64,000 nt of DNA from an uncultured Alphaproteobacteria bacterium (GTDB taxonomy: Bacteria; Pseudomonadota; Alphaproteobacteria; Rhizobiales; Hyphomicrobiaceae). Location of the stretch: positions 23,615 through 87,614 of the forward strand of contig CAVUEM010000012.1 in NCBI GenBank assembly GCA_963740475.1, read 5' to 3'. How positions within the stretch are numbered: position 1 is the first letter of the stretch; each line of letters opens with the position of its first letter. Both the position numbers and the translations under genes were made by a program. Of this stretch, positions 1,580 to 32,424 are shown one piece after another. Below the pieces are notes generated by a model. It was not told the origin of the DNA and did not search any database. It was given only the letters and a program-made list of their open reading frames with translations.

Positions 1580-2479
1580 ATGACCGACGCCACGCCGATC
1601 CTGCACATGCTCTCGCCGCAGAAGCACATGAGCCCCTTCGACGTGAACATGGCGGCCGATGCCGGCTACAAGGTCATCATCCCCTATATCAACGTGACGC
1701 TCGAGGAAGTGACGCCACTGGTGCAGGACGCGATCTTCTCGCGCCCCCCCGACTATGGAACGCGCACCGGCGTCTTCATCGGCGGCAAGGACGCGATCCT
1801 CTCCCTCGACATGATGGAGGCGGCGCGCAAGGCCATGGTGCCGCCGTTCGCGCTCTCCGTCTTCGCCGATCCCGCCGGCTCCTTCACGACCGCGGCCGCC
1901 ATGGTGGCGTGCGTCGAGCGCGTCTTGAAGTTCAAGTTCGGCCGGAGCTGGAAGGGCCTCAAGGTGACCGTGTTCGGCGCGACGGGCGTCGTCGGCTTCG
2001 CCTCCTCGATCATCACGGCGCTCGAGGGCGCCCGCGTCCAGCTCGTCGCCCATCGCGGCGTCGACCGCGTCATCAAGTCGGCGGCCGTGTCGAAGGACCG
2101 TTTCGGGGTCGATCTCGAGCCGGTCGCCGGCGAGACCGCCGATCAGAAGCGGGCCATCATCGAGAACGCGGAGGTAATTTTCGCCGCAGCGGCCGCCGGC
2201 GTCCAGGTGATCGGTAAGGAGCATAAGGAGCTCGCCAAGAACCTGCTCGTCGTCGCCGATGTCAATGCCGTCCCGCCGCCGGGCGTCGAGGGCATGGAGC
2301 TCTTCATGGATGGGGCCCCGCTGCCGGGCTGCAACGCGCTCGGCGTCGGCCCGCTCGCCATCGGCGACATCAAGTACAAGACGGAATCGGGCCTCTTCAA
2401 GCAGATGATCGCCTCGAAGGAGTCGCTCGCCCTCGATTTCCGTCAAGCCTTTGCGCTGGCGCGCCAGCTCACGGCGTGA
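1580..2479 (+). CDS. mtdB: NAD(P)-dependent methylene-H4MPT dehydrogenase
   Basis: ILHMLSPQKHMSPFDVNMAADAGY, VQDAIFSR, FADPAGSFTTAAA and VFGATGVVG Rossmann motif. Confidence 0.95.
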   Translation: MTDATPILHMLSPQKHMSPFDVNMAADAGYKVIIPYINVTLEEVTPLVQDAIFSRPPDYGTRTGVFIGGKDAILSLDMMEAARKAMVPPFALSVFADPAGSFTTAAAMVACVERVLKFKFGRSWKGLKVTVFGATGVVGFASSIITALEGARVQLVAHRGVDRVIKSAAVSKDRFGVDLEPVAGETADQKRAIIENAEVIFAAAAAGVQVIGKEHKELAKNLLVVADVNAVPPPGVEGMELFMDGAPLPGCNALGVGPLAIGDIKYKTESGLFKQMIASKESLALDFRQAFALARQLTA

Positions 2480-3630
2480 CCGCCGAGACGGTTCTCATCG
2501 CCGCATTCTCGGCCCGGGCGCTTGCGGTCTCCGCCCGGCGTGCGGGCTTTATTCCCCTCGCCGTCGATTGCTTCGGCGACATCGATACCGAGCTTGCGGC
2601 AGAGGCGCTGCGCTGCCTTCCGGCCCGCGTCCAGACCGGGTTCATGACAAAGCCGCTTTTCGCCGCGCTCGACGAGCTGGTCGCCGCGGCCTCGAGCCCG
2701 CCTCTCGGGCTCGTGCTCGGATCGGGCTTCGAGTGCAACCCCCGCCTCGTTGCCCGCCTCGGCGAGCGGTTCCGCCTGCTCGGCAATTCGGCCGCGACCA
2801 TCGCCCGCACCAAGGACCCTGCAGCTTTCTTCGCCGTCCTCTCCCGGCTCGGGATTGTCCACCCCGAGACCCGCCCGGAGCCCCCGTCCGCTCCCGAGGG
2901 ATGGCTCATGAAGCGCATCGGCGGGAGCGGCGGCCTCCACATCGTCGACTGTCCCGAGGAGCCGCGGCCCGACCCGCGGCGCTACTTCCAGCGCAGAATT
3001 CCCGGCGAGGCGATCTCCATTCTCGGCCTCGTCGGCCCGCGCGCGCACGCCTTCGCGCCTAGCCGGCAGTGGGTCTCGCCGCTGCCGAAGCGGCCCTACC
3101 GCTACGGCGGAGCGGTGGGTGGCATCGCGCTCGAGCCCGACCTCGAAGCCCGCCTAATCACGGCATGCATCGCTCTTGCAGACGACCTCGGACTAGAGGG
3201 CCTCGTCTCCTTCGACTTCCTGGTGGCGGACGGCGAGGCCGCACTGCTCGAGGTCAACCCACGGCCCGGCGCCACGCTCGACGTGTTCGACGACGCGGCC
3301 GGCACGCTCTTTCGCGCCCATGTCGAAACTTGTCTCGGCGGCGACGGCGCCGCCCTGCTCGCCGGCTCCTGGCGCCCACCCCACGCCCGCGCCACCGCCA
3401 TTCTGTATGCGGATTTGGGCGAGCTCACCGCGCCGGCGCTCGACTGGCCCGGCTGGGTCGCCGACCGGCCGCGTCCCGGCACGCGCGTGGGTCCTCGGCA
3501 GCCGGCGGCGACCGTGCTTGCCGACGCCGATACTCCGGCGGCTGCCGAACATCTCGCGCACGAGCGCTTGGGTGTTCTTGCAAACATGCTGTATGAAGAC
3601 GGAAAAAACGGGAAGGGAATGCCACAATGA
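2476..3630 (+). CDS. orfY: ATP-grasp protein OrfY (methylofuran glutamylation-associated)
   Basis: ATP-grasp motifs (WLMKRIGGSGG, YFQRRIPG, LEVNPRPGATL). GTGA overlap with mtdB and canonical position between mtdB and mch. Confidence 0.85.
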   Translation: MTAETVLIAAFSARALAVSARRAGFIPLAVDCFGDIDTELAAEALRCLPARVQTGFMTKPLFAALDELVAAASSPPLGLVLGSGFECNPRLVARLGERFRLLGNSAATIARTKDPAAFFAVLSRLGIVHPETRPEPPSAPEGWLMKRIGGSGGLHIVDCPEEPRPDPRRYFQRRIPGEAISILGLVGPRAHAFAPSRQWVSPLPKRPYRYGGAVGGIALEPDLEARLITACIALADDLGLEGLVSFDFLVADGEAALLEVNPRPGATLDVFDDAAGTLFRAHVETCLGGDGAALLAGSWRPPHARATAILYADLGELTAPALDWPGWVADRPRPGTRVGPRQPAATVLADADTPAAAEHLAHERLGVLANMLYEDGKNGKGMPQ

Positions 3631-4598
3631 CCGTAACTCCGGGACCGGCCCCGAGCGTTAACGCCAGGGCCGCAAAGCTCGTCGACGACCTCGCCGCCAA
3701 CGCCGGGGCGCTACGATGCGCCGTCTCGACCGGGGAGGCCGGCGAGCGGCGCATCGACCTCGGCGCCAAGGCGGTGGGCGGTCTCGAGGCCGGACGCCGG
3801 CTCGGCGAGATCTGCATGGGCGGCCTCGGCACGGTCAGCATGACGTCCGCGTCCGGGCTCGAGCGCTGGCCCCTGGGCGTCGTCGTGCACTCGAACGATC
3901 CGGTCGTCGCCTGCTTGGGCAGTCAATATGCCGGCTGGACCATCAAGCATGAGGAAAGCGGCTTCTTCGCGCTCGGCTCCGGCCCCGCCCGCGCTCTGTC
4001 GCGCGTGGAGGAGCTATTCAGACACCTCGGCTACGTCGACCACCACCACAAGGCCGCGCTCGTCATCGAAGGCGACAAGGCGCCGCCGTCCGTTGTCGCC
4101 AGAGAGATTGCCTCGGCGTGCGGCGTCGTGCCCTCCGACCTCACCATCCTCTACGCCCCGACCGGAAGCCTCGCCGGCACTGTGCAGATCGCCTCCCGCG
4201 TGCTCGAGGTCGCGCTGCATAAGGCACACGCGCTGCACTTCCCGCTGGAGCACATCATCGACGGCTACGGCGTCGCGCCCATCGCGCCGCCCATTCCCGA
4301 TTTCGTCAAGGCGATGGGGCGCACCAACGACGCCATCATCTACGGCGGGCGCATCCAGCTCTTCGTCAAGGGTTCGGACGCGAATGCAAAGCAGCTCGCG
4401 AACAATCTCCCCTCGAGCTCGTGCTCGATCTACGGTAAGCCGTTCGCCGAGATCTTCGCCTCCGTCGACGGCGACTTCTACAAGATCGACGCCGCGCTGT
4501 TCAGCCCGGCGGTCGTCACCGTCTCGAACCTCGACACGGGATCGTCCTTCCACGCCGGCAAGCTCGCCCCGGATATCGTCGACGCGAGCTTCAAGTAA
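3627..4598 (+). CDS. mch: Methenyl-H4MPT cyclohydrolase
   Basis: ACLGSQYAGW, FALGSGPARAL, QIASRVLEVALHK, AMGRTNDAIIYGG and FYKIDAALFSPA motifs. Confidence 0.97.
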   Translation: MTVTPGPAPSVNARAAKLVDDLAANAGALRCAVSTGEAGERRIDLGAKAVGGLEAGRRLGEICMGGLGTVSMTSASGLERWPLGVVVHSNDPVVACLGSQYAGWTIKHEESGFFALGSGPARALSRVEELFRHLGYVDHHHKAALVIEGDKAPPSVVAREIASACGVVPSDLTILYAPTGSLAGTVQIASRVLEVALHKAHALHFPLEHIIDGYGVAPIAPPIPDFVKAMGRTNDAIIYGGRIQLFVKGSDANAKQLANNLPSSSCSIYGKPFAEIFASVDGDFYKIDAALFSPAVVTVSNLDTGSSFHAGKLAPDIVDASFK

Positions 4599-4603
4599 CT
4601 TCA

Positions 4604-4636
4604 TTCCCTCTCCCGTCCTTACGGGGAGAGGGGGAA
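4604..4636. repeat. Single CCCTCTCCC...GGGAGAGGG hairpin unit
   Basis: TTCCCTCTCCCG-TCCTTA-CGGGGAGAGGGGGAA between mch and orf5. Same motif family as the element inside orf17. Confidence 0.7.
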
Positions 4637-4643
4637 CACTGGC

Positions 4644-5585
4644 ATGAACCGACCCGTCGCACCGACTGATCTCGAAGCGGTCTCGAGGGGCCCGCGCATC
4701 GCACTCTTCGTCGAGGAGGGCCAAGGCGACTGGCACGCGCGCCGCCTGCGCCGTGCGATTGAGGCCCGCGGCGCCCGTGTGGTGGTGACGACGCTCGCCG
4801 CCTGCGCCTTCGACACGCGGATCGCGAGCGGTCTCGACATTCCGGGATTTGCCGGCGAGCTTCCCGACGGCGCCTTCGTGCGCTCGGTCTCGACCGGCAC
4901 GCTCGAGCAGATCACGCTGCGGCTCGGGATCCTCCATGCGCTGCGCGAATCCGGCGTGCGCGTGTGGAATGACGCGCGCGCCATCGAGCGCTGCGTCGAC
5001 AAATCCACCGCGACGTTCCTGTTTCAGAAGGCCGGGCTCCCGACGCCGCCGACGCGGACCGCCGAGGGGTGCGCGGCCGCCCTCGCCCATGCGCAAGCCG
5101 TCGGCGCGCCCCTCGTCGTCAAGCCGCTGTTCGGCAGTCAGGGCAACGGCATCACGCGCGCCGCCGCTCCGGCCGAGTTGCCGGCGCCCGAGGCCCTCGG
5201 CAACGTCTATTACCTCCAGGAGTATCTGCGCACGGCGGACGCGACCCGCTTCGAGGACTGGCGCGTCTTCGTCTCGCGCGGGCGCGTGCTCGCCGCCATG
5301 ACGCGGGTCGGCAAGAGTTGGATCACCAACGTCCATCAGGGCGCCGCGCCGTCCCGCGTCGAGCCCAATGGCGAGATGCGCCGCCTGGCGCTAGCCGCCG
5401 TTGCCGCGATAGGCGCCGACTATGCGGGAGTCGACCTGATCCGCGGGCCGGACGGTCGTCTTCTCGTGCTCGAGATCAATTCGAACCCCGCCTGGAAGGG
5501 TCTCCAGAGCGTCACCGACCTCGACATCGCAGGCACCCTCGCCGACGATTTTCTCTCCGCCTTGACCCCCGTTCCCGCGCTATGA
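4644..5585 (+). CDS. orf5: RimK-family alpha-L-glutamate ligase Orf5 (cofactor glutamylation)
   Basis: IERCVDKSTAT, VVKPLFGSQGNG, YYLQEY, DWRVFV, WITNVHQG and YAGVDL..LEINSNPAW motifs, in the H4MPT operon. Confidence 0.9.
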   Translation: MNRPVAPTDLEAVSRGPRIALFVEEGQGDWHARRLRRAIEARGARVVVTTLAACAFDTRIASGLDIPGFAGELPDGAFVRSVSTGTLEQITLRLGILHALRESGVRVWNDARAIERCVDKSTATFLFQKAGLPTPPTRTAEGCAAALAHAQAVGAPLVVKPLFGSQGNGITRAAAPAELPAPEALGNVYYLQEYLRTADATRFEDWRVFVSRGRVLAAMTRVGKSWITNVHQGAAPSRVEPNGEMRRLALAAVAAIGADYAGVDLIRGPDGRLLVLEINSNPAWKGLQSVTDLDIAGTLADDFLSALTPVPAL

Positions 5586-6451
5586 ACTTCCCTCTCGCGG
5601 GGGAGCAAATCGCCCATGCATTTCTCTCGGCCTGCCGGGCCGAGCTTCACGCCTTGAAGCCCGGCAACGTGCACATCCATGCGCCCGGTCACGGCATGGA
5701 GATGCGCCACTTCGAGGAGGCCGCCGCGGCGGCGGCCCCGTGGATCGCGACCGCGGGCCTCAGGGTCGGCGCGCGGGTCTTGGCTGCCGTCGAAGCAAGC
5801 ATGGTGGCGGCCGGCTGCAACACCAACCTTGGCATCCTGCTGCTGTCAGCGCCGCTCGCCGCCGCGGCGGGCACTGAGAGCCCCTTCGGCACTCTGCGCG
5901 AGCGCCTAAGGATTGTGCTGTCCGGCCTCGATCGCGAGGACGCGGCAAACGTCTTTGAGGCGATCCGATGCGCCAAACCCGCGGGTCTCGGCGCCGTAGA
6001 GTCCGAGGACGTCGGCGAGCCGCCGACGGTAGCGCTCGGCGAGACCATGCGGCTTGCTGCCGCGCGCGACCGCATCGCACGCGCCTACGTCACCGCCTTC
6101 GCGGACGTGTTCGAGTTCGGGCTCGCTCGGCTCACTGAGGCGCGCTGCGCTGCAGCGAGCGAAAATGACGCTGTGACGACATTGCACATGAGCTACCTCG
6201 CGGAATTTCCGGACAGCCACATTGCGCGCAAGTACGGGGCGGAAAAGGCCATCGAGGTGCGCGATCGGGCACGCGCGCTGTCCCCGCTTTGGCAGCCCGC
6301 CGCCGGCCCGCATTCGTTTGCGGCGCTCATGGCGTTCGATCGTGAGCTCAAGGACGCTGGCCTCAATCCGGGGACCACGGCCGATTTCGTCGTCGCGACC
6401 CTTTTCACCGACGCGTTAATTACGTTGGGCCTCGCGCAGCGCGGCGCTTAA
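5582..6451 (+). CDS. orf7: CitG-like triphosphoribosyl-dephospho-CoA synthase family protein Orf7
   Basis: ELHALKPGNVH, NTNLGILLL, PDSHIARKYG and LNPGTTAD motifs. ATGA overlap with the orf5 stop. Confidence 0.9.
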   Translation: MNFPLAGEQIAHAFLSACRAELHALKPGNVHIHAPGHGMEMRHFEEAAAAAAPWIATAGLRVGARVLAAVEASMVAAGCNTNLGILLLSAPLAAAAGTESPFGTLRERLRIVLSGLDREDAANVFEAIRCAKPAGLGAVESEDVGEPPTVALGETMRLAAARDRIARAYVTAFADVFEFGLARLTEARCAAASENDAVTTLHMSYLAEFPDSHIARKYGAEKAIEVRDRARALSPLWQPAAGPHSFAALMAFDRELKDAGLNPGTTADFVVATLFTDALITLGLAQRGA

Positions 6452-6485: not shown

Positions 6486-6653
6486 GGGGCGTGCTCTCGG
6501 CGCCGCTATCTGGCCAACCGGTCCGGTGACGCTCGTCACCGTTCGCTGCAACTGGGATAGCTCGGAACGACTGCAGCCGGCCCACTTATGGCGGGCCCGA
6601 TCCCGGGCGCGCCGTCTGTTTGTTGTGTGGAAGTCAAGGAAGGGAACCCCATA

Positions 6654-7166
6654 ATGGCCAAGATCAATCGCGTAATGGTTGGCGAGTTGCTCGTCGGTGA
6701 CGGCAACGAAGTCGCCCACATCGACCTTATGATCGGACCGCGCGGCAGCGCCGCCGAGACCGCGTTCTGCAACGCGCTCACCAACAACAAGGACGGCTTC
6801 ACCACGCTGCTCGCGGTCATCGCGCCGAACCTGCCGTGCAAGCCCAACACCATCCTTTACAACAAGGTCACCATCAAGGACGCCCGCCAGGCGGTGCAGA
6901 TGTTCGGCCCCGCCCAGTACGGCGTCGCCAAGGCCGTGCAGGACTCGGTCGCCGAAGGCATCATCCCGGCGAACGAGGCCGACGACGTCTACATCACGGT
7001 CGGCGTGTTCATTCACTGGGAAGCGGCCGACGACGCCAAGATTCAGGACTTCAACTATCGCGCGGTGAAGGAGAGCATCGCCCGCGCCGTGGCCGGCAAG
7101 CCGACGGCCGCCGAGGCGACCGCCCAGCGTAACGCCGTGCAGCATCCGTTCGGTGCGAAGACTTGA
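6654..7166 (+). CDS. fae: Formaldehyde-activating enzyme
   Basis: [37 protein letters not shown] and QMFGPAQ..VAKAV motifs. AAGGAAGG RBS before the ATG at 6654. Confidence 0.97.
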
Positions 7167-7308: not shown

Positions 7309-8103
7309 TCACGAGCCGGCGATCTCGACGAGGTCGCCGGCTTTTATTTTGCGATCGTGGAGCGCGGTGGCGACGAGGGCTCCCGCCGCGCCCGCACTCT
7401 TGAGCGCGAGAAGGTCGCCCAGCCCGCGCACGCCCCCCGCCGCAAAGATGCGCCGCCCTCGAGCCCTGCCAACAATCTCTCCGAGACGCGCGAGATCGGG
7501 GCCGGCTCCGGTGCCAACCCGCGCCAGCGTCATCACGATCACGCGCTCGGGCCATCGCTCGGCATCCTCGAGCACCTCTCGCGGCCCGAGAAACTCGTCT
7601 CCGCGAAAGTCGAGCGACAGCACCCACTCTTCTTTCCCCCTCTCCCCGCCAGCGGGGAGGGGGCCCGAGCGGAGCTCGGCTTCGCCGAGACGGTGAGGGG
7701 CAGCCGCTTGTGGTTGCTCCGGTCTCTGCCCCTCACCCTGACCCCCTCCCCATGTAGAATGGGGAGAGGGGAAAGCGAGCGACTCCGAGCCGACGACGGG
7801 GACAAGGTTCGGCTCGGCAGAAGGCCGGTCGGAGCTGCCGTCGTCGAGCCACAGCTCCACGCCCGGCAACGCAGCTGCGAGCCGCGCGATGAGCGCCCGG
7901 TTAGCCCCGCGTCCCTCGATCCCGTCGAGATCGGCGACATAGAGCATCCGGAAGGGATAGAGCGACAGAAAGCCTCGCGCGACCGCGACCGGGTCGGCAC
8001 TCGCCGCTAGCGGCGTCTCGAGCGGCCTGTAATCCGCGCGCCGTCCGCCCACGGCCCGGACGGCTGCGCCATGGCGCACATCGATGACCGGAATGACTTC
8101 CAT
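7309..8103 (-). CDS. orf17: HisA/HisF-related protein Orf17, carrying an in-frame repeat-derived insertion
   Basis: MEVIPVIDV, LYVADLDGIEG, VGSES, VLSLDFRG, VMTLARVG.GAGPD and AAGGVRG motifs. About 40 extra residues lie between GSES and VLSLDF. Confidence 0.88.
   Translation of the reverse strand: MEVIPVIDVRHGAAVRAVGGRRADYRPLETPLAASADPVAVARGFLSLYPFRMLYVADLDGIEGRGANRALIARLAAALPGVELWLDDGSSDRPSAEPNLVPVVGSESLAFPSPHSTWGGGQGEGQRPEQPQAAAPHRLGEAELRSGPLPAGGERGKEEWVLSLDFRGDEFLGPREVLEDAERWPERVIVMTLARVGTGAGPDLARLGEIVGRARGRRIFAAGGVRGLGDLLALKSAGAAGALVATALHDRKIKAGDLVEIAGS
7636..7772. repeat. Composite palindromic element (hairpin - GGTGAGGGGCAG ... CTGCCCCTCACC - hairpin) inside orf17
   Basis: Hairpin at 7636-7663, perfect 12-bp inverted repeat at 7692-7703/7726-7737, small hairpin CTCGGC-TTC-GCCGAG, and a terminal CCCCCTCCCC..GGGGAGAGGGG hairpin. 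Confidence 0.85.
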
Positions 8104-8163
8104 CGCTCCCATTTCCTTGCCGTTGGTGTATCACACGCGCGGGCTCCGCCTGGAGAGAAGGCA

Positions 8164-9198
8164 ATGACAGCGACGGCCGGACTCGACGTTGGCGGAGCGC
8201 ACCTCAAGGTCGCGCTCGCCGAGGCCAGCCGCGTGACGTCCGTCCGGCAAATCGCCTGTCCGCTGTGGCTGGGGCTCGACAAGCTCGATGCCGCGTTGGC
8301 CGAAGCCGCCCCGATTCTCTCCCGCGCCGCGCGTCATGGCGTGACGATGACCGGCGAGCTGTCCGACCTGTTTCCGGACCGCAAAACCGGCGTCGACACC
8401 CTTGTCGGGCGGCTCGTGCGCGACCTCGGGACTGGCACCCGGTTCTGGATGGGCGGGAAGGGCTTCGGCGACGCCGAGACTGCCCGAAATCACCCGACCG
8501 ACGTCGGCTCGACCAACTTTCTTGCCACCGCGGCCTTTGTCGGCACCCGACTTCCCGAGGCGCTCCTCGTCGATTTCGGTTCGACGACCGCCGACATCAT
8601 TGCCGTGGACGGGGGACGGCCGGCCGTGCGCGGCTTGACGGACGGAGCACGCCTCGAGACCGGCGAGCTCGTCTATACGGGGCTCACGCGCACTGCCGTG
8701 ATGGGGATTGCCACGCGGGCGCCGTTGCAAGGTCGCGAGCAGGGCCTCGCGCGCGAGGTTCTCGCGACCATGGCCGACGTGCGACGCGTTCTGGGTTGCC
8801 TGCCCGACGGCGTCGACCAGCACGTCACCGCGGACGGGCGCGGCAAATCCGTGGACGAGAGCCTCGCACGCCTCGCCCGCATGTTCGGGCGCGACGCGGC
8901 CGACGGCAGTCTCGAGGATTGGCGCGAAGCGGCGGCCTTTCTGCGCGATGCGCAGATGCGCTCGATTCTCGAGGGTTGCGACACGGTGCTCGGGGCAACG
9001 CCTGTCGATATCCGCGCGCCGGTCGTCGCGGCGGGTATCGGGGCGGCCGAGATCGCCGCACTCGCGACGCGCCTCGGACGGCCGAGCGTCGAGTTCGGAT
9101 CGCTTGCGGACGCGGACGAGCCTTGCCGCCTCTGGGCGACGCGCTGCGCCCCCGCCGTTGCCGTGGCACTCCTCCTAGCGCATGATCGTCTGACATAG
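8164..9198 (+). CDS. orf9: Hydantoinase/oxoprolinase-like Orf9 (MfnF homologue)
   Basis: GLDVGGAHLK, VTMTGELSDLF, DFGSTTADI, GELVYTGLTRT and ATMADVRR motifs. GGAGAG RBS before the ATG at 8164. Confidence 0.9.
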   Translation: MTATAGLDVGGAHLKVALAEASRVTSVRQIACPLWLGLDKLDAALAEAAPILSRAARHGVTMTGELSDLFPDRKTGVDTLVGRLVRDLGTGTRFWMGGKGFGDAETARNHPTDVGSTNFLATAAFVGTRLPEALLVDFGSTTADIIAVDGGRPAVRGLTDGARLETGELVYTGLTRTAVMGIATRAPLQGREQGLAREVLATMADVRRVLGCLPDGVDQHVTADGRGKSVDESLARLARMFGRDAADGSLEDWREAAAFLRDAQMRSILEGCDTVLGATPVDIRAPVVAAGIGAAEIAALATRLGRPSVEFGSLADADEPCRLWATRCAPAVAVALLLAHDRLT

Positions 9199-22934: not shown

Positions 22935-23705
22935 TTATTCGCCGATACATGCCTTCTCGGCTTCGACTGCCTCCTTCGGCTTCTCGGCACGCTGATCTGC
23001 GCTGAGACGCCCGCCCGGCAGCGCGTCCGTCGAGCGGGCGCGCAGATAGACGTAAAGATCGTCGATGTAGCACATGACGTTCTTGTTATCGCCGAGGGCC
23101 GGCATGATGTACTTCGTGCCGGCGACATCGCGCACTTGGCCACTCGCGACGACCTGAAGGAACTTCTCGTACGTCATGTTCTTGAGCAAGTCCTTGAGGG
23201 CGGGAGCGAAGCTCGACCCCTCCGCGTTCGGGCCGTGACAGACGTGGCACTCCGCATGGTAGCGCCGCCAGCCTGAGTACGTGTTCCAATCGACCTGCTT
23301 CACGATGTCGGTGTTGGCCGTATCTCGATGCACGTCATAGGTCGGACTGCCGTCGGACAGCACCCACTTGCCGCCTTCGAACTTCTTGCCCTCCTGGAAC
23401 TGCTTCTCGAACGCGGGGTCGGGAACCGGGCTCTTGTCGTCGGCTGCGGCGACTTGCGCGGGTGGCGGCGAAGCTGCCTCAGGCGGAGCCGCGGGCGCGG
23501 CAGGCCGTTTTGCTGCTTCTGTCGCGGCCGGCGCCGGCTCGACCGCGGCGACCTTCTCCTCCTTCTGAGCCGGGGCCGGTGCGGCCTCCGTCTTCTGATC
23601 CTTCGCGGCTGGAGGAGAGTCCTCGGCGCTGCACGCCGTCATTCCGAGAGTGACCGCGATGCCGAAGCAGCCCGCAGCGCACATTCCAAGTCCAAACCTT
23701 TTCAC
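22935..23705 (-). CDS. xoxG: XoxG-type c-type cytochrome with lipobox and long Ala/Pro linker
   Basis: GWRRYHAECHVCHG haem motif, MPALGDNKNVMCY and terminal AC (four-Cys type). GTG start after an AAGGGG RBS; LGMTA-C lipobox-like site. Confidence 0.88.
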   Translation of the reverse strand: MKRFGLGMCAAGCFGIAVTLGMTACSAEDSPPAAKDQKTEAAPAPAQKEEKVAAVEPAPAATEAAKRPAAPAAPPEAASPPPAQVAAADDKSPVPDPAFEKQFQEGKKFEGGKWVLSDGSPTYDVHRDTANTDIVKQVDWNTYSGWRRYHAECHVCHGPNAEGSSFAPALKDLLKNMTYEKFLQVVASGQVRDVAGTKYIMPALGDNKNVMCYIDDLYVYLRARSTDALPGGRLSADQRAEKPKEAVEAEKACIGE

Positions 23706-28205: not shown

Positions 28206-28583
28206 TCAGAAGCAGCGCAGCTCGCCCTCGATCTGCGCGCGCTTCAAGTTCTTGACCTTCTCCTGCATCGCAGGATTGAACATGTAGGCCACGCTCTCGC
28301 CGCCGCGCTGGCGCACCGAGAGGATCGTTTCCGCCTCCTCGTACTCCTTGTAAGGGAGGATGGTGGCGATCACGTCGATCGAGCACGCACACTTGTCGAG
28401 CTCGATGCGCGTCTGACCGGTAACTTGCATGCAGCCGAAAACGTAGTCGGCGCGCGACTCGGTGGGATAATCGTTCTCGACCGCCTTGGTGTCCGTGCAC
28501 TCCTCGGCAAGGACTGCCGCCTGCATTCCGCCAAGTCCCGCCCCGGCCAGAGCGAGAACCATCAGAGCGTTCCTGAGAGTCAT
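28206..28583 (-). CDS. Small exported Cys-containing hypothetical protein
   Basis: Signal peptide, DYPTESRADYVFGCM, CACSID and a terminal RCF. Clean codon usage; ATGA overlap with the upstream gene. Confidence 0.75.
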   Translation of the reverse strand: MTLRNALMVLALAGAGLGGMQAAVLAEECTDTKAVENDYPTESRADYVFGCMQVTGQTRIELDKCACSIDVIATILPYKEYEEAETILSVRQRGGESVAYMFNPAMQEKVKNLKRAQIEGELRCF

Positions 28584-31124: not shown

Positions 31125-32424
31125 ATGACTCCATCACTGGACGGTCCCGCGACCGGCGTTCGCGGCAAATCTAATGCCTATGAGAACGTGACCTGCCCCT
31201 TTTGCGGCATCCTCTGCGACGATCTCGAGGTGACGCCGACCGAGACCGGTCTCAAGGTCAGCAAGAACGCCTGCTCGCGCGCCATCTTCGGTTTCGAGCG
31301 GCCCGTCGGCTCCCCGATCCCCAAGGTCGGCGGCAAGCCCGTCACGCTCGAGGAAGCGATCCAGGCCGCGGCGAACATCATCAGGGGAGCGCGGCTCCCC
31401 CTCTACGGCGGCCTCGCGACCGACGTCGAGGGCATGCGCGCGGTCATGGCGATCGCCGATCGCTCGGGCGGCGTCGTCGACCACGCCTTGAGCGAGGGCC
31501 AGTACCGGAACTTTCGCGTGCTGCAGACGAGCGGCTGGTTCATGTCGACGCTGACGGAAGTGCGCAATCGGGCCGACCTCATCGTCGTCGTCGGCTCGGA
31601 CCTCAACAAGATTCATCCGCGCTTCTTCGAGCGCGTCGTCACCGTCACCGATTCGCTCCTGACCGACACGCCTCCGAAGCGCACGGTCGTCTTTCTCGGC
31701 CAGGGCCTCGATCAGTCGGCGGCGACCGGGCCGCGCATCGGCGAGGTCATCACCGTCCCCTGCCCGCCCCACCTCGTCGGCGAGGTGGTGGCCGCGATCC
31801 GCGCCGTCATCAACGGTCGGCCGATCGCCGATAGCATCGCGGGCGTACCGGCGGCCGACATCCGATCTCTCGCGGAGCGCTTCCGCAATGCCGCATACGG
31901 CGTCATGGTCTGGGCGCCGCCGGGACTAGCCTTCGCCAATGCCGACTTGACCGTCCATGCCGTCTCCGAGCTGGTCAAGGACTTGAACAAGACGACGCGG
32001 TTCGCCGGTCTCTCGCTCGGCGGCAACGAGGGCGCGGTGACGGCGGGCGCCGTTTGCGGCTGGCAGAGCGGATATCCGCTGCGCGTGAGCTTTGCCTCGG
32101 GCAAGCCCGACTACGACCAGTATCGCTACGCCATCGGCCGCATGCTCGCCGCCGGCGAGGGCGACGCGCTCCTCTGGATCGGCTCGATCTCGCCGGACAT
32201 CGTGCCGCCCGCGACCAAGATTTCCGACCGTCGTGCTCGGGACGCCTGACCTCAAGTTGACCGGTGAGCCCACCGTGTTCATTCCCGTCGGCACGCCGGG
32301 CCTCGACCACGACGGCCGCCTCGTGCGCTGCGACAACGTCGTCTCGCTGCCGCTCAAAAGCGTCAATCGCGCCAAGCTCCCGCGCGTCGCCGACGTGATC
32401 GGCGCCATCGAAGCCGCCCTCTAA
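31125..32424 (+). CDS. fhcB: Formyltransferase/hydrolase complex subunit B (one apparent +1 frameshift at ~32222)
   Basis: ENVTCPFCGILCDDL, TLTEVRNRADL, WQSGYPLRVSF and PVGTPGLDHDG.LVRCD.VVSLPL motifs. Removing one T from the TTT at 32221-32223 gives a continuous ORF to 32424. Confidence 0.88.

Follow-up and report, generated by a model that had tools for sequence, protein, structure and literature searches.

Palindromic Repeats Comparable to the Element in orf17

Palindromic repeats that sit in frame within genes are known from textbooks as a curiosity of Rickettsia. The Rickettsia palindromic elements (RPEs) are repeats of 100–150 nt that lie between genes as well as in frame within conserved protein genes, where the peripheral peptide they encode is compatible with function (Ogata et al., 2000, as cited in PMC3184786). 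Here we describe a comparable case in a 64,000-nt stretch of DNA (hereafter the window; positions 23,615 to 87,614 of contig CAVUEM010000012.1, assembly GCA_963740475.1) from an uncultured alphaproteobacterium of the Hyphomicrobiaceae, in which a 141-nt repeat lies inside orf17, a gene encoding a HisA/HisF-like TIM-barrel protein. Judged by its sequence, the repeat is an inverted pair of units of the BoxC/PIT/TMECO 'intrastrand triplex' family, and it lies in frame in the connection between strands beta4 and beta5 of Orf17, where it is old and remodelled and is probably read through as a tolerated loop that is predicted to be disordered.

The BoxC or PIT repeats (Bergler, 1992; Hoyne and Maher, 2000, both as cited in Holder et al., 2015, PMC4666352) have been surveyed under the name TMECO, with 3610 copies in 262 proteobacterial genomes, among which inverted 'palindromic' pairs are known; no transposase is linked to them, their function is not known, and the units of Escherichia coli MG1655 are exclusively intergenic (PMC4666352). 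When BoxC/PIT was tested in vivo, neither a promoter, a terminator nor a polymerase-blocking effect was seen (PMC4666352, introduction). A unit is defined as a C-rich stem of 9–10 nt, a loop, a complementary G-rich stem, a spacer of 3–4 nt and a second G-rich block that mirrors the first (PMC4666352), and the E. coli TMECO type A consensus reads CCCTCGCCCC-TTT-GGGGAGAGGG-TTA-GGGTGAGGGG (Holder et al., 2015, PMC4666352 Table 1). The repeats of the present genome share with this family the three-block unit, CCCTC(T/G)CCCC - loop - GGGGAGAGGG - 3–4 nt - GG(G)TGAGGGG, as well as the inverted pairs, the tens of copies per genome, the lack of a linked transposase and the deletions that leave a hairpin. 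Therefore, what the first-pass annotation of the window had taken for an alphaproteobacterial repeat without a name already has one (PMC4666352). The present repeats differ in that all 23 of the 23 units of E. coli MG1655 are intergenic, whereas 4 of about 14 pairs here lie inside reading frames, in that the host is an alphaproteobacterial methylotroph, in that stems are extended by 2–6 covarying base pairs (bp), and in that one cassette holds a DUF559 gene between its units.

The analogy to RPEs that had been drawn from the window is apt, since in both cases a palindromic repeat of 100–150 nt occurs between genes and in frame within conserved genes, leaves them unbroken and contributes a peripheral segment. 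However, RPEs are AT-rich and thereby set apart in composition from the GC-rich triplex-motif arms found here, the present host is free-living with a 4.7-Mb genome, and the nucleotide-level conservation of the arms and the orientation flip at one site are features seen here. We therefore regard the repeat as analogous to RPEs and not as a member, homology being unlikely given its GC-rich G/C runs. REP/REPIN repeats with their RAYT genes (IS200/IS605-like Y1) resemble the present family in their short GC-rich hairpins, single or as inverted doublets, and in a single-copy gene flanked by repeats, but here there is no Y1_Tnp, the flanked gene encodes a DUF559/Vsr-like PD-(D/E)XK nuclease, and a third block lies outside the hairpin. 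The betaproteobacterial repeat element (BRE) of Bordetella (Hot et al., 2011, PMC3110155), a GC-rich repeat of about 90 nt, is mostly intergenic with some copies wholly in coding sequence; it is thus similar in composition and in its occasional intragenic copies, and unlike in its tandem organization resembling a variable number of tandem repeats. BRE was rejected as the same repeat, four motif strings of the present family being absent from two supplementary files of PMC3110155. Taken together, a known repeat family is found here in a known kind of situation, that of an in-frame palindrome as in RPEs, and we did not find the combination in the literature searched.

Anatomy and Family of the Inserted Repeat

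The gene orf17 occupies 7309–8112 on the minus strand of the window in the list of open reading frames (ORFs) and matches Pfam PF00977 (His_biosynth, E = 1.4e-20); the sequence of its database protein (P0001) begins with MEVIPV, 9 nt past the ATG of the ORF. An nhmmer profile built from genomic copies of the repeat matches contig positions 31248–31388, equal to window 7634–7774, with 84.3 bits, and this interval of 141 nt, also delimited by orthologue alignments, corresponds to 47 codons (F111–K157 of P0001). The palindromic element reported at 7636–7772 is thus present, with profile limits two bases wider on each side, and the frame between the GSES and VLSLDF motifs is kept as claimed, with no stops and the encoded peptide FPSPHSTWGGGQGEGQRPEQPQAAAPHRLGEAELRSGPLPAGGERGK. 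Terminal hairpins are formed by arms of 12 nt each at 7638–7649/7652–7663 and 7742–7753/7759–7770 (92% complementary). Between them, the inner inverted repeat GGTGAGGGGCAG / CTGCCCCTCACC (7692–7737) consists of the two third blocks plus CAG/CTG around a sequence-variable centre of 22 nt, with fully complementary 12-nt arms (7692–7703/7726–7737, 100%) standing 22 nt apart.

One unit of the pair is intact. It lies at 7729–7770 on the minus strand, which is the coding strand, was found by regular expression at contig positions 31343–31384 (-), and reads CCCTCTCCCC-ATTCTACAT-GGGGAGGGGG-TCAG-GGTGAGGGG, that is, C stem, loop, G stem, spacer and third G block, in agreement with the published unit definition. 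The hairpin of the second, inverted unit (CCCTCTCCCCGC/GCGGGGAGGGGG, 7638–7663, plus strand), recognized as an inverted repeat and by alignment with canonical copies, is separated from its third block by an extra segment (7664–7691), which the family alignment shows in this copy only and which exceeds the canonical 3–4-nt spacer by about 24 nt; it contains a small hairpin, CTCGGC-TTC-GCCGAG, and encodes RLGEAELRSG. Folded as RNA, the 171-nt region reaches -105.1 kcal/mol, compared with -80.8 +/- 5.1 for shuffled sequences (z = -4.8; 0 of 200 shuffles as good).

The source genome (G000) is a draft of 4.68 Mb in 55 contigs with 64.5% GC and a completeness of 92%. It holds 51 hairpins of the form CCCTCTCCCC-loop-GGGGAGAGGG vs. 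2 in a reversed-sequence control, 26 three-block units CCCTCTCCCC-loop-GGGGAGAGGG-(2–5 nt)-GGTGAGGGG vs. none in the control, and about 14 full three-hairpin elements, or pairs. Canonical copies, CCCTCTCCCC-loop-GGGGAGAGGG-TTA/TTG/TCG-GGGTGAGGGG, match the E. coli consensus nearly base for base, and with blastn the window copy weakly matched intergenic E. coli DNA (77–79% identity, E = 3e-3). The canonical element consists of a unit, CAG, 22 nt, CTG and an inverted unit. The distance between its third blocks is 28 nt in 9 of the 10 measurable pairs of the genome and in 5 of 6 orthologous orf17 copies, while the sequence between them varies, and the gap in E. coli pairs is 26–27 nt (coordinates of PMC4666352 Table 1). 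This constant spacing suggests a geometric constraint, such as binding by a dimeric protein or a loop that must keep one size. Hairpin stems are lengthened by copy-specific base pairs (mean 2.24 bp vs. 0.32 in shuffled loops, with a maximum of 0.59 among 1000 shuffles), and because these extensions covary across copies, the fold itself is under constraint. An Rfam search of the element returned no known RNA family, only sub-threshold chance matches to mir-9201 and snaR-A (E about 0.2–0.3). Among the 26 genomes of the GTDB genus, exact-pattern units range from 0 (12 species) to 44 (G023), indicating that both expansion and loss of the repeat family took place within short evolutionary times.

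The Insert as a Predicted Loop of a TIM Barrel

In this Orf17, 53 amino acids (aa) separate GSES from LSLDF, compared with 12–19 aa in about 20 orthologues of the same genus, in which the native segment is commonly SLxDYxxARxxAGxxAP. Orthologues without the repeat DNA thus have a far shorter segment, and the claim that the repeat lengthened the protein withstands the sizing that had been proposed as its refuting test. The proposed addition of about 40 aa holds in part: the net gain is 34–41 aa, but it is no pure addition, as the 47 repeat-encoded residues largely replace the native alpha4 segment. Among 3892 homologues of orf17, the best 120 are mostly 226–235 aa long vs. 264 aa for the present protein, in which all family-invariant residues are intact.

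An AlphaFold2 model based on a 23-sequence alignment (mean predicted local distance difference test, pLDDT, 83) superposes on HisA/PriA/HisF structures with a template modelling score of about 0.71. Its barrel core has pLDDT > 90, whereas residues 113–148 and 152–157 fall below 50. The insert is placed between beta4 (100–105) and beta5 (161–167), with a short helix predicted at 141–145, in the part encoded by the extra segment, and the modelled barrel is without regular helices alpha3 and alpha4. As had been predicted, the insert is modelled as a surface loop, here a disordered one on the periphery of the TIM barrel. The HisA/HisF-type fold is built of two-fold symmetric half-barrels, as known from the work of Hocker and Sterner, and the connection between beta4 and beta5 is the seam between the halves. 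This position is a plausible reason why the insert would be tolerated. Tolerance as a disordered loop is the best-supported reading at the protein level, and the loop is presumably translated and neutral.

Age and Remodelling of the Insert

The insert occurs at the same orf17 junctions in five independent assemblies with 65–79% protein identity, namely G015 (= L049 sequence), G023, the Joint Genome Institute (JGI) metagenome contig P0002, G016 (= P0004 sequence) and the Logan contig P0003, so that the sources span JGI, ENA, Logan and two GTDB assemblies. A further sequence (P0005) has only one hairpin at the insert site, is 81 nt shorter than the G016 copy and has a segment of 13 residues; this solo hairpin is the expected remnant of a deletion between two direct CCCTCTCCCC arms. 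In the gene tree, the present orf17 forms a clade with those of G015, G023 and P0002 (support 91/87). The length of the insert region is a multiple of three in 6 of 7 sequences. Based on this distribution, the insertion appears to be older than the split of several species in this Hyphomicrobium-like genus, which includes metagenome-assembled genomes (MAGs) labelled Hyphomicrobium sp., and the host itself is a Hyphomicrobium-like methylotroph.

The copies have been altered since in several ways. In the present one, the additional 24-nt hairpin follows the inner repeat and precedes the last hairpin. In those of G015, G023 and P0002, a different 24-nt piece occupies the junction of the first hairpin with the inner repeat. 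When compared by eye only, these two lineage-specific pieces show 15 of 18 direct matches. The G016 copy resembles the copies of the present clade better as a reverse complement (93–97 matches in 116) than directly (84–86 in 116), and its spacers read TTGG and CTGA, exactly complementary to CCAA and TCAG; the P0003 copy has the reverse-complement pattern too, less clearly. The orientation of the G016 copy could result from in-situ inversion between the terminal inverted arms or from a second insertion.

Other In-Frame Copies and the Reading Frame

The first-pass annotation described repeat-driven evolution caught in a single gene, which does not hold, as nrdJ, mazG and uvrB carry the same repeat in the same frame and the orf17 insert is old and common to several species. 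By contrast, its proposed genome scan for in-frame copies was productive, with 4 of the approximately 14 pairs (orf17, nrdJ, mazG and uvrB) intragenic, in frame and all of one frame type. The nrdJ pair (class II ribonucleotide reductase) lies directly after the CNLASLNL motif and is common to the present genome and G023, the mazG pair lies in the linker joining the two MazG domains, and the uvrB pair lies in an N-terminal extension of UvrB that is conserved across the genus, the GC content at third codon positions being 0.90 right after the element. The frame in use, PSP..GEG.GEGQ...PHPNPLP..GERG, is hydrophilic. Most copies are also open in the frame that reads LPLTLTLSP, which is unused, and the third frame type contains TGA. 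A TTA spacer, the common one, would produce TAG in the frame in use, and the coding copies have TCAG, TCG, TGG or GGT spacers in its place.

Several further observations concern these genes. The nrdJ loop after CNLASLNL..RK is a hot spot of insertion, with a native KADKS in G013, a 14-aa longer segment in G012 (L117), and, in G015 (L119), an unrelated 70-nt palindrome (GGCAGCAGGCAACAGGCAGCGG...) at the same loop, out of frame in that assembly. In the present genome, reading continues in another frame soon after conserved sequence, near C45:59490 (C45:59440–59540) in nrdJ and after ...EELAELEEIALPADP in mazG (C43:161300–162950). These shifts are likely single-base indel errors of the draft and less likely signs of real pseudogenes. 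G023 and the present genome are 99% identical over the nrdJ segment with the insert (G023:C3:49952–50551) and about 71–76% identical over orf17 (G023:C17:201506–202298), a contrast that could reflect MAG contamination (8%), mosaicism or the transfer of one locus.

In another clade of the genus, the beta3–beta4 loop of orf17 carries a different triplex-motif subfamily, with GGGGGAGG arms and the third block GGGTGGGGGG. Its pair reads CCCCCCCTCC-TAA-CCTCCCCCAC ... CCCTCCCCC-TTG-TGGGGAGGG-TTA-GGGTGGGGGG and encodes GIPPLLSSPTRGEE..PSPLWGGLGWGE; full pairs and decayed solo hairpins are found among the carriers (L012:1501–2370, L084, L088, L083, L085 and L087). It is a second, independent repeat invasion of Orf17.

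A DUF559 Cassette and the Possible Spread of the Repeat

The annotation had suggested looking for a linked nuclease of the DUF559 type, and indeed the only DUF559 (PF04480) gene of the genome (C47:112605–112892, 98 bits) stands between two inverted repeat units, 112472–112512 (+) and 112934–112972 (-), with the inner CAG/CTG in common, forming a 501-bp cassette. The genus (26 genomes) holds 16 DUF559 genes, 13 of which have a unit within about 150 nt. The two-sided arrangement is seen in the present genome and G003, and a one-sided one in 11 more DUF559 genes. The chance of a unit adjoining a DUF559 gene is 0.3–1% per gene, giving P of about 1e-24 or lower for 13 of 16. DUF559 is present in 10 of 14 genomes with units vs. 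3 of 12 without (one-sided Fisher p = 0.024, uncorrected for phylogeny). The E. coli K-12 DUF559 gene ycjD has one BoxC unit at a distance of 167 nt, in its spacer with fabI. No link between DUF559 and BoxC-type repeats was found in the literature searched.

RAYT / Y1_Tnp (PF01797) gave no matches in the present genome, which is 92% complete, while control genomes respond to the search, and the REPIN-RAYT model was rejected for this family. Although terminal inverted arms are present, neither target-site duplications nor a common target motif were seen in the flanks of the 11 paired copies inspected, and a miniature inverted-repeat transposable element was rejected for lack of such duplications. 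The Vsr-like DUF559 nuclease is the leading candidate for the spread or maintenance of the repeat.

A further-reaching proposal, which we regard as possible although doubtful, is that BoxC/triplex-motif repeats are the ends and gene-less derivatives of a minimal selfish element, the sole gene of which encodes the DUF559 (Vsr-like PD-(D/E)XK) nuclease. In that case, the nuclease or copy-templated repair would keep the arms intact even in essential genes, and would deliver or flip the element at a few permissive loop-coding sites, such as the orf17 beta4–beta5 connection and the nrdJ site after CNLASLNL. Gene-less pairs do have cassette-like features, namely the inner CAG/CTG boundaries and, in 6 of 10, one short 'GC-NN-GC' hairpin together with a longer one. 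However, no DUF559 gene was detected in G015, which has 40 units. When the 22-nt centres of 11 gene-less pairs are locally aligned to the 421-nt interior of the cassette, their scores stay within the shuffle range except for one copy, which lies slightly above it at an internal position. The link is an association and not a mechanism, and cleavage, binding or mobilization by the nuclease are putative.

Conservation of the Arms and Alternative Explanations

Outside the insert, the present orf17 is identical to that of G016 or P0003 at 0.81/0.76–0.82/0.54–0.55 of codon positions 1/2/3, whereas in the six palindromic arms 59 of 64 positions match (92%), whatever the codon position. Because this conservation is independent of codon position, selection on the loop peptide cannot explain it, and it points to selection on structure, homogenization by other copies or recent re-insertion. 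Since the arms are constant at the nucleotide level, the element appears to persist as a DNA or RNA structure and not merely as a peptide.

We propose the following course of events. An inverted pair would have entered the DNA of the Orf17 beta4–beta5 connection in the stop-free, hydrophilic frame of the repeat, and the gene would have been read straight through it, with 47 residues displacing most of the native alpha4 segment and forming a loop at the half-barrel seam. The enzyme would tolerate this loop, and the insertion would precede the split of several species. Later remodelling kept to multiples of three, with a 24-nt hairpin acquired at different junctions in two lineages, a reverse-complemented element in a third, and, in another, an 81-nt deletion between direct CCCTCTCCCC arms that would have left the solo hairpin.

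Several observations weigh against this course. The nucleotide-level conservation of the arms speaks against a purely neutral, 'dead' insertion. The insert-bearing sequences outside the present clade fall in a polytomy at the decisive node of the gene tree, which allows one origin and does not prove it. The opposite orientation in G016 and P0003 fits independent insertions equally well. In G023, whose assembly shows further signs of error, the orf17 insert does not keep the frame (196 nt), and the apparent frameshifts in nrdJ and mazG mark the base-level accuracy of the present assembly as imperfect.

Alternative to a single old insertion, the element might have homed to a target of a few nucleotides in orf17 several times, independently in different lineages and in both orientations, with a nuclease (e.g., DUF559) or a structure-prone target as its guide, in which case the similarity of the arms between species would reflect recency and not conservation. 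Such repeated entry would account for a G016/P0003 element opposite in orientation to the present clade at the same junctions and for arms far more alike than the flanking synonymous sites, and it would be in line with the DUF559 cassette, with the hot spot in the nrdJ loop (a BoxC pair in G000 and G023, another palindrome in G015, a 14-aa longer segment in G012) and with a different triplex-motif subfamily in an adjacent orf17 loop of another clade. However, the variable centre and loops within the present clade are clearly orthologous, the present copy and that of G015 sharing about 17 of the 23 H2-loop positions, and the P0005 solo hairpin matches the last hairpin of the G016/P0003 type, as descent with deletion predicts. 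Neither a target-site duplication nor a common target motif is seen at other copies, and in-situ inversion between the terminal inverted arms accounts for the flip without a second insertion. We thus consider repeated homing rather unlikely.

The element might instead be kept for a role of its DNA or RNA in the gene, either as a stable mRNA structure (ribosome pausing between the half-barrels, transcript stabilization or separation of translated domains) or as a triplex or cruciform that affects replication or recombination. Arms conserved at 92% vs. 55% at third positions of the host gene, covarying stem extensions, the constant 28-nt spacing around a variable centre, the fold energy of -105 kcal/mol (z = -4.8) and a site that coincides with the seam of the two-fold symmetric barrel at beta4/beta5 would all be expected from such a role, but most orthologues and species of the genus do without the element, one lineage has cut it down to a solo hairpin, and gene conversion from the other 20–40 copies, or the element's own maintenance, could keep the arms. 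Moreover, the published in vivo tests of BoxC/PIT were negative for promoter, terminator and polymerase-blocking activity (PMC4666352), and a role of this kind seems improbable to us.

Co-option at the protein level, in which the Gly/Pro/Glu-rich segment of 47 residues would serve Orf17 as a partner-binding or lid loop, had been claimed in the first-pass annotation. This claim is not upheld, since use and tolerance are indistinguishable here and the loop is predicted to be disordered (pLDDT 36–54). Retention in frame across 65–79% protein divergence in at least five lineages, the single frame of all four intragenic copies, and a barrel side without regular alpha3 and alpha4 that may be an interface are what a used loop might show. 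However, the centre of the peptide varies freely, 24-nt insertions occur at different places, the segment survives reverse-complementing and is reducible to 13 residues, arm conservation ignores codon position, unlike selection on a peptide, and similar peptides occur in unrelated proteins, all of which makes co-option very unlikely. Finally, a repeat mis-assembled into orf17, or a dead gene, is a scarcely credible reading that the sequence data have largely refuted, as the 55-contig draft (92% complete) with its apparent frameshifts in nrdJ and mazG stands against the recurrence of the insert at one and the same site across JGI, ENA, Logan and two GTDB assemblies, a stop-free insert with a length that is a multiple of 3, intact invariant residues and a confidently folded AlphaFold2 core.

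The Gene Cluster and a Solo Hairpin

The setting of orf17 is a typical methylotroph 'archaeal-like' one-carbon (C1) cluster, in which orf17 is opposite in strand (Pfam, ORF list). The cluster comprises an ATP-grasp gene (2476–3630), mch (3627–4598, Pfam MCH), the RimK-like ATP-grasp gene orf5/myfB (4644–5585, Pfam RimK), a CitG-like gene (5573–6451), fae (6588–7166) and the hydantoinase-like orf9 (8071–9198). In Methylorubrum extorquens, Orf17 is required for the synthesis of methylofuran and not for that of tetrahydromethanopterin (H4MPT) (PMC8141765). The description of orf17 as a cofactor gene is therefore right as to cofactor biosynthesis, but the cofactor is methylofuran and not H4MPT (PMC8141765).

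A solo hairpin of the same family, TCCCTCTCCCGT-CCT-TACGGGGAGAGGGGGA, had been noticed at 4604–4636, and it is found there, in the 45-nt spacer between mch and orf5/myfB, with a weak nhmmer match at contig positions 28218–28249. Its G-rich arm GGGGAGAGGGGG (4623–4634) stops 9 nt 5' of the orf5/myfB ATG (4644). This arm could double as the Shine-Dalgarno sequence of orf5/myfB, which would then be sequestered in the hairpin.

Implications for the BoxC/TMECO Family

BoxC/TMECO has been known for thirty years without a mechanism and is reported to be strictly intergenic in E. coli, whereas here copies in predicted translated frames are found in four housekeeping enzymes of a free-living methylotroph. 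The series across the genus captures stages of a history, with the full pair, the pair with a nested hairpin, the flipped pair, the solo hairpin and the empty site. Three features are out of the ordinary, namely arms that are conserved inside coding sequence, and better so than the host gene, a reversal of orientation at an unchanged site, and the DUF559 cassette. Together, these observations offer a small system in which to test what maintains or moves BoxC repeats and how far a TIM barrel tolerates insertion at its half-barrel seam. If the reading as a selfish DUF559 element were true, it would settle the nature of BoxC and its mode of spread, both debated since the 1990s without an answer, and BoxC with DUF559 would be a second repeat-plus-gene system comparable to REPIN-RAYT.

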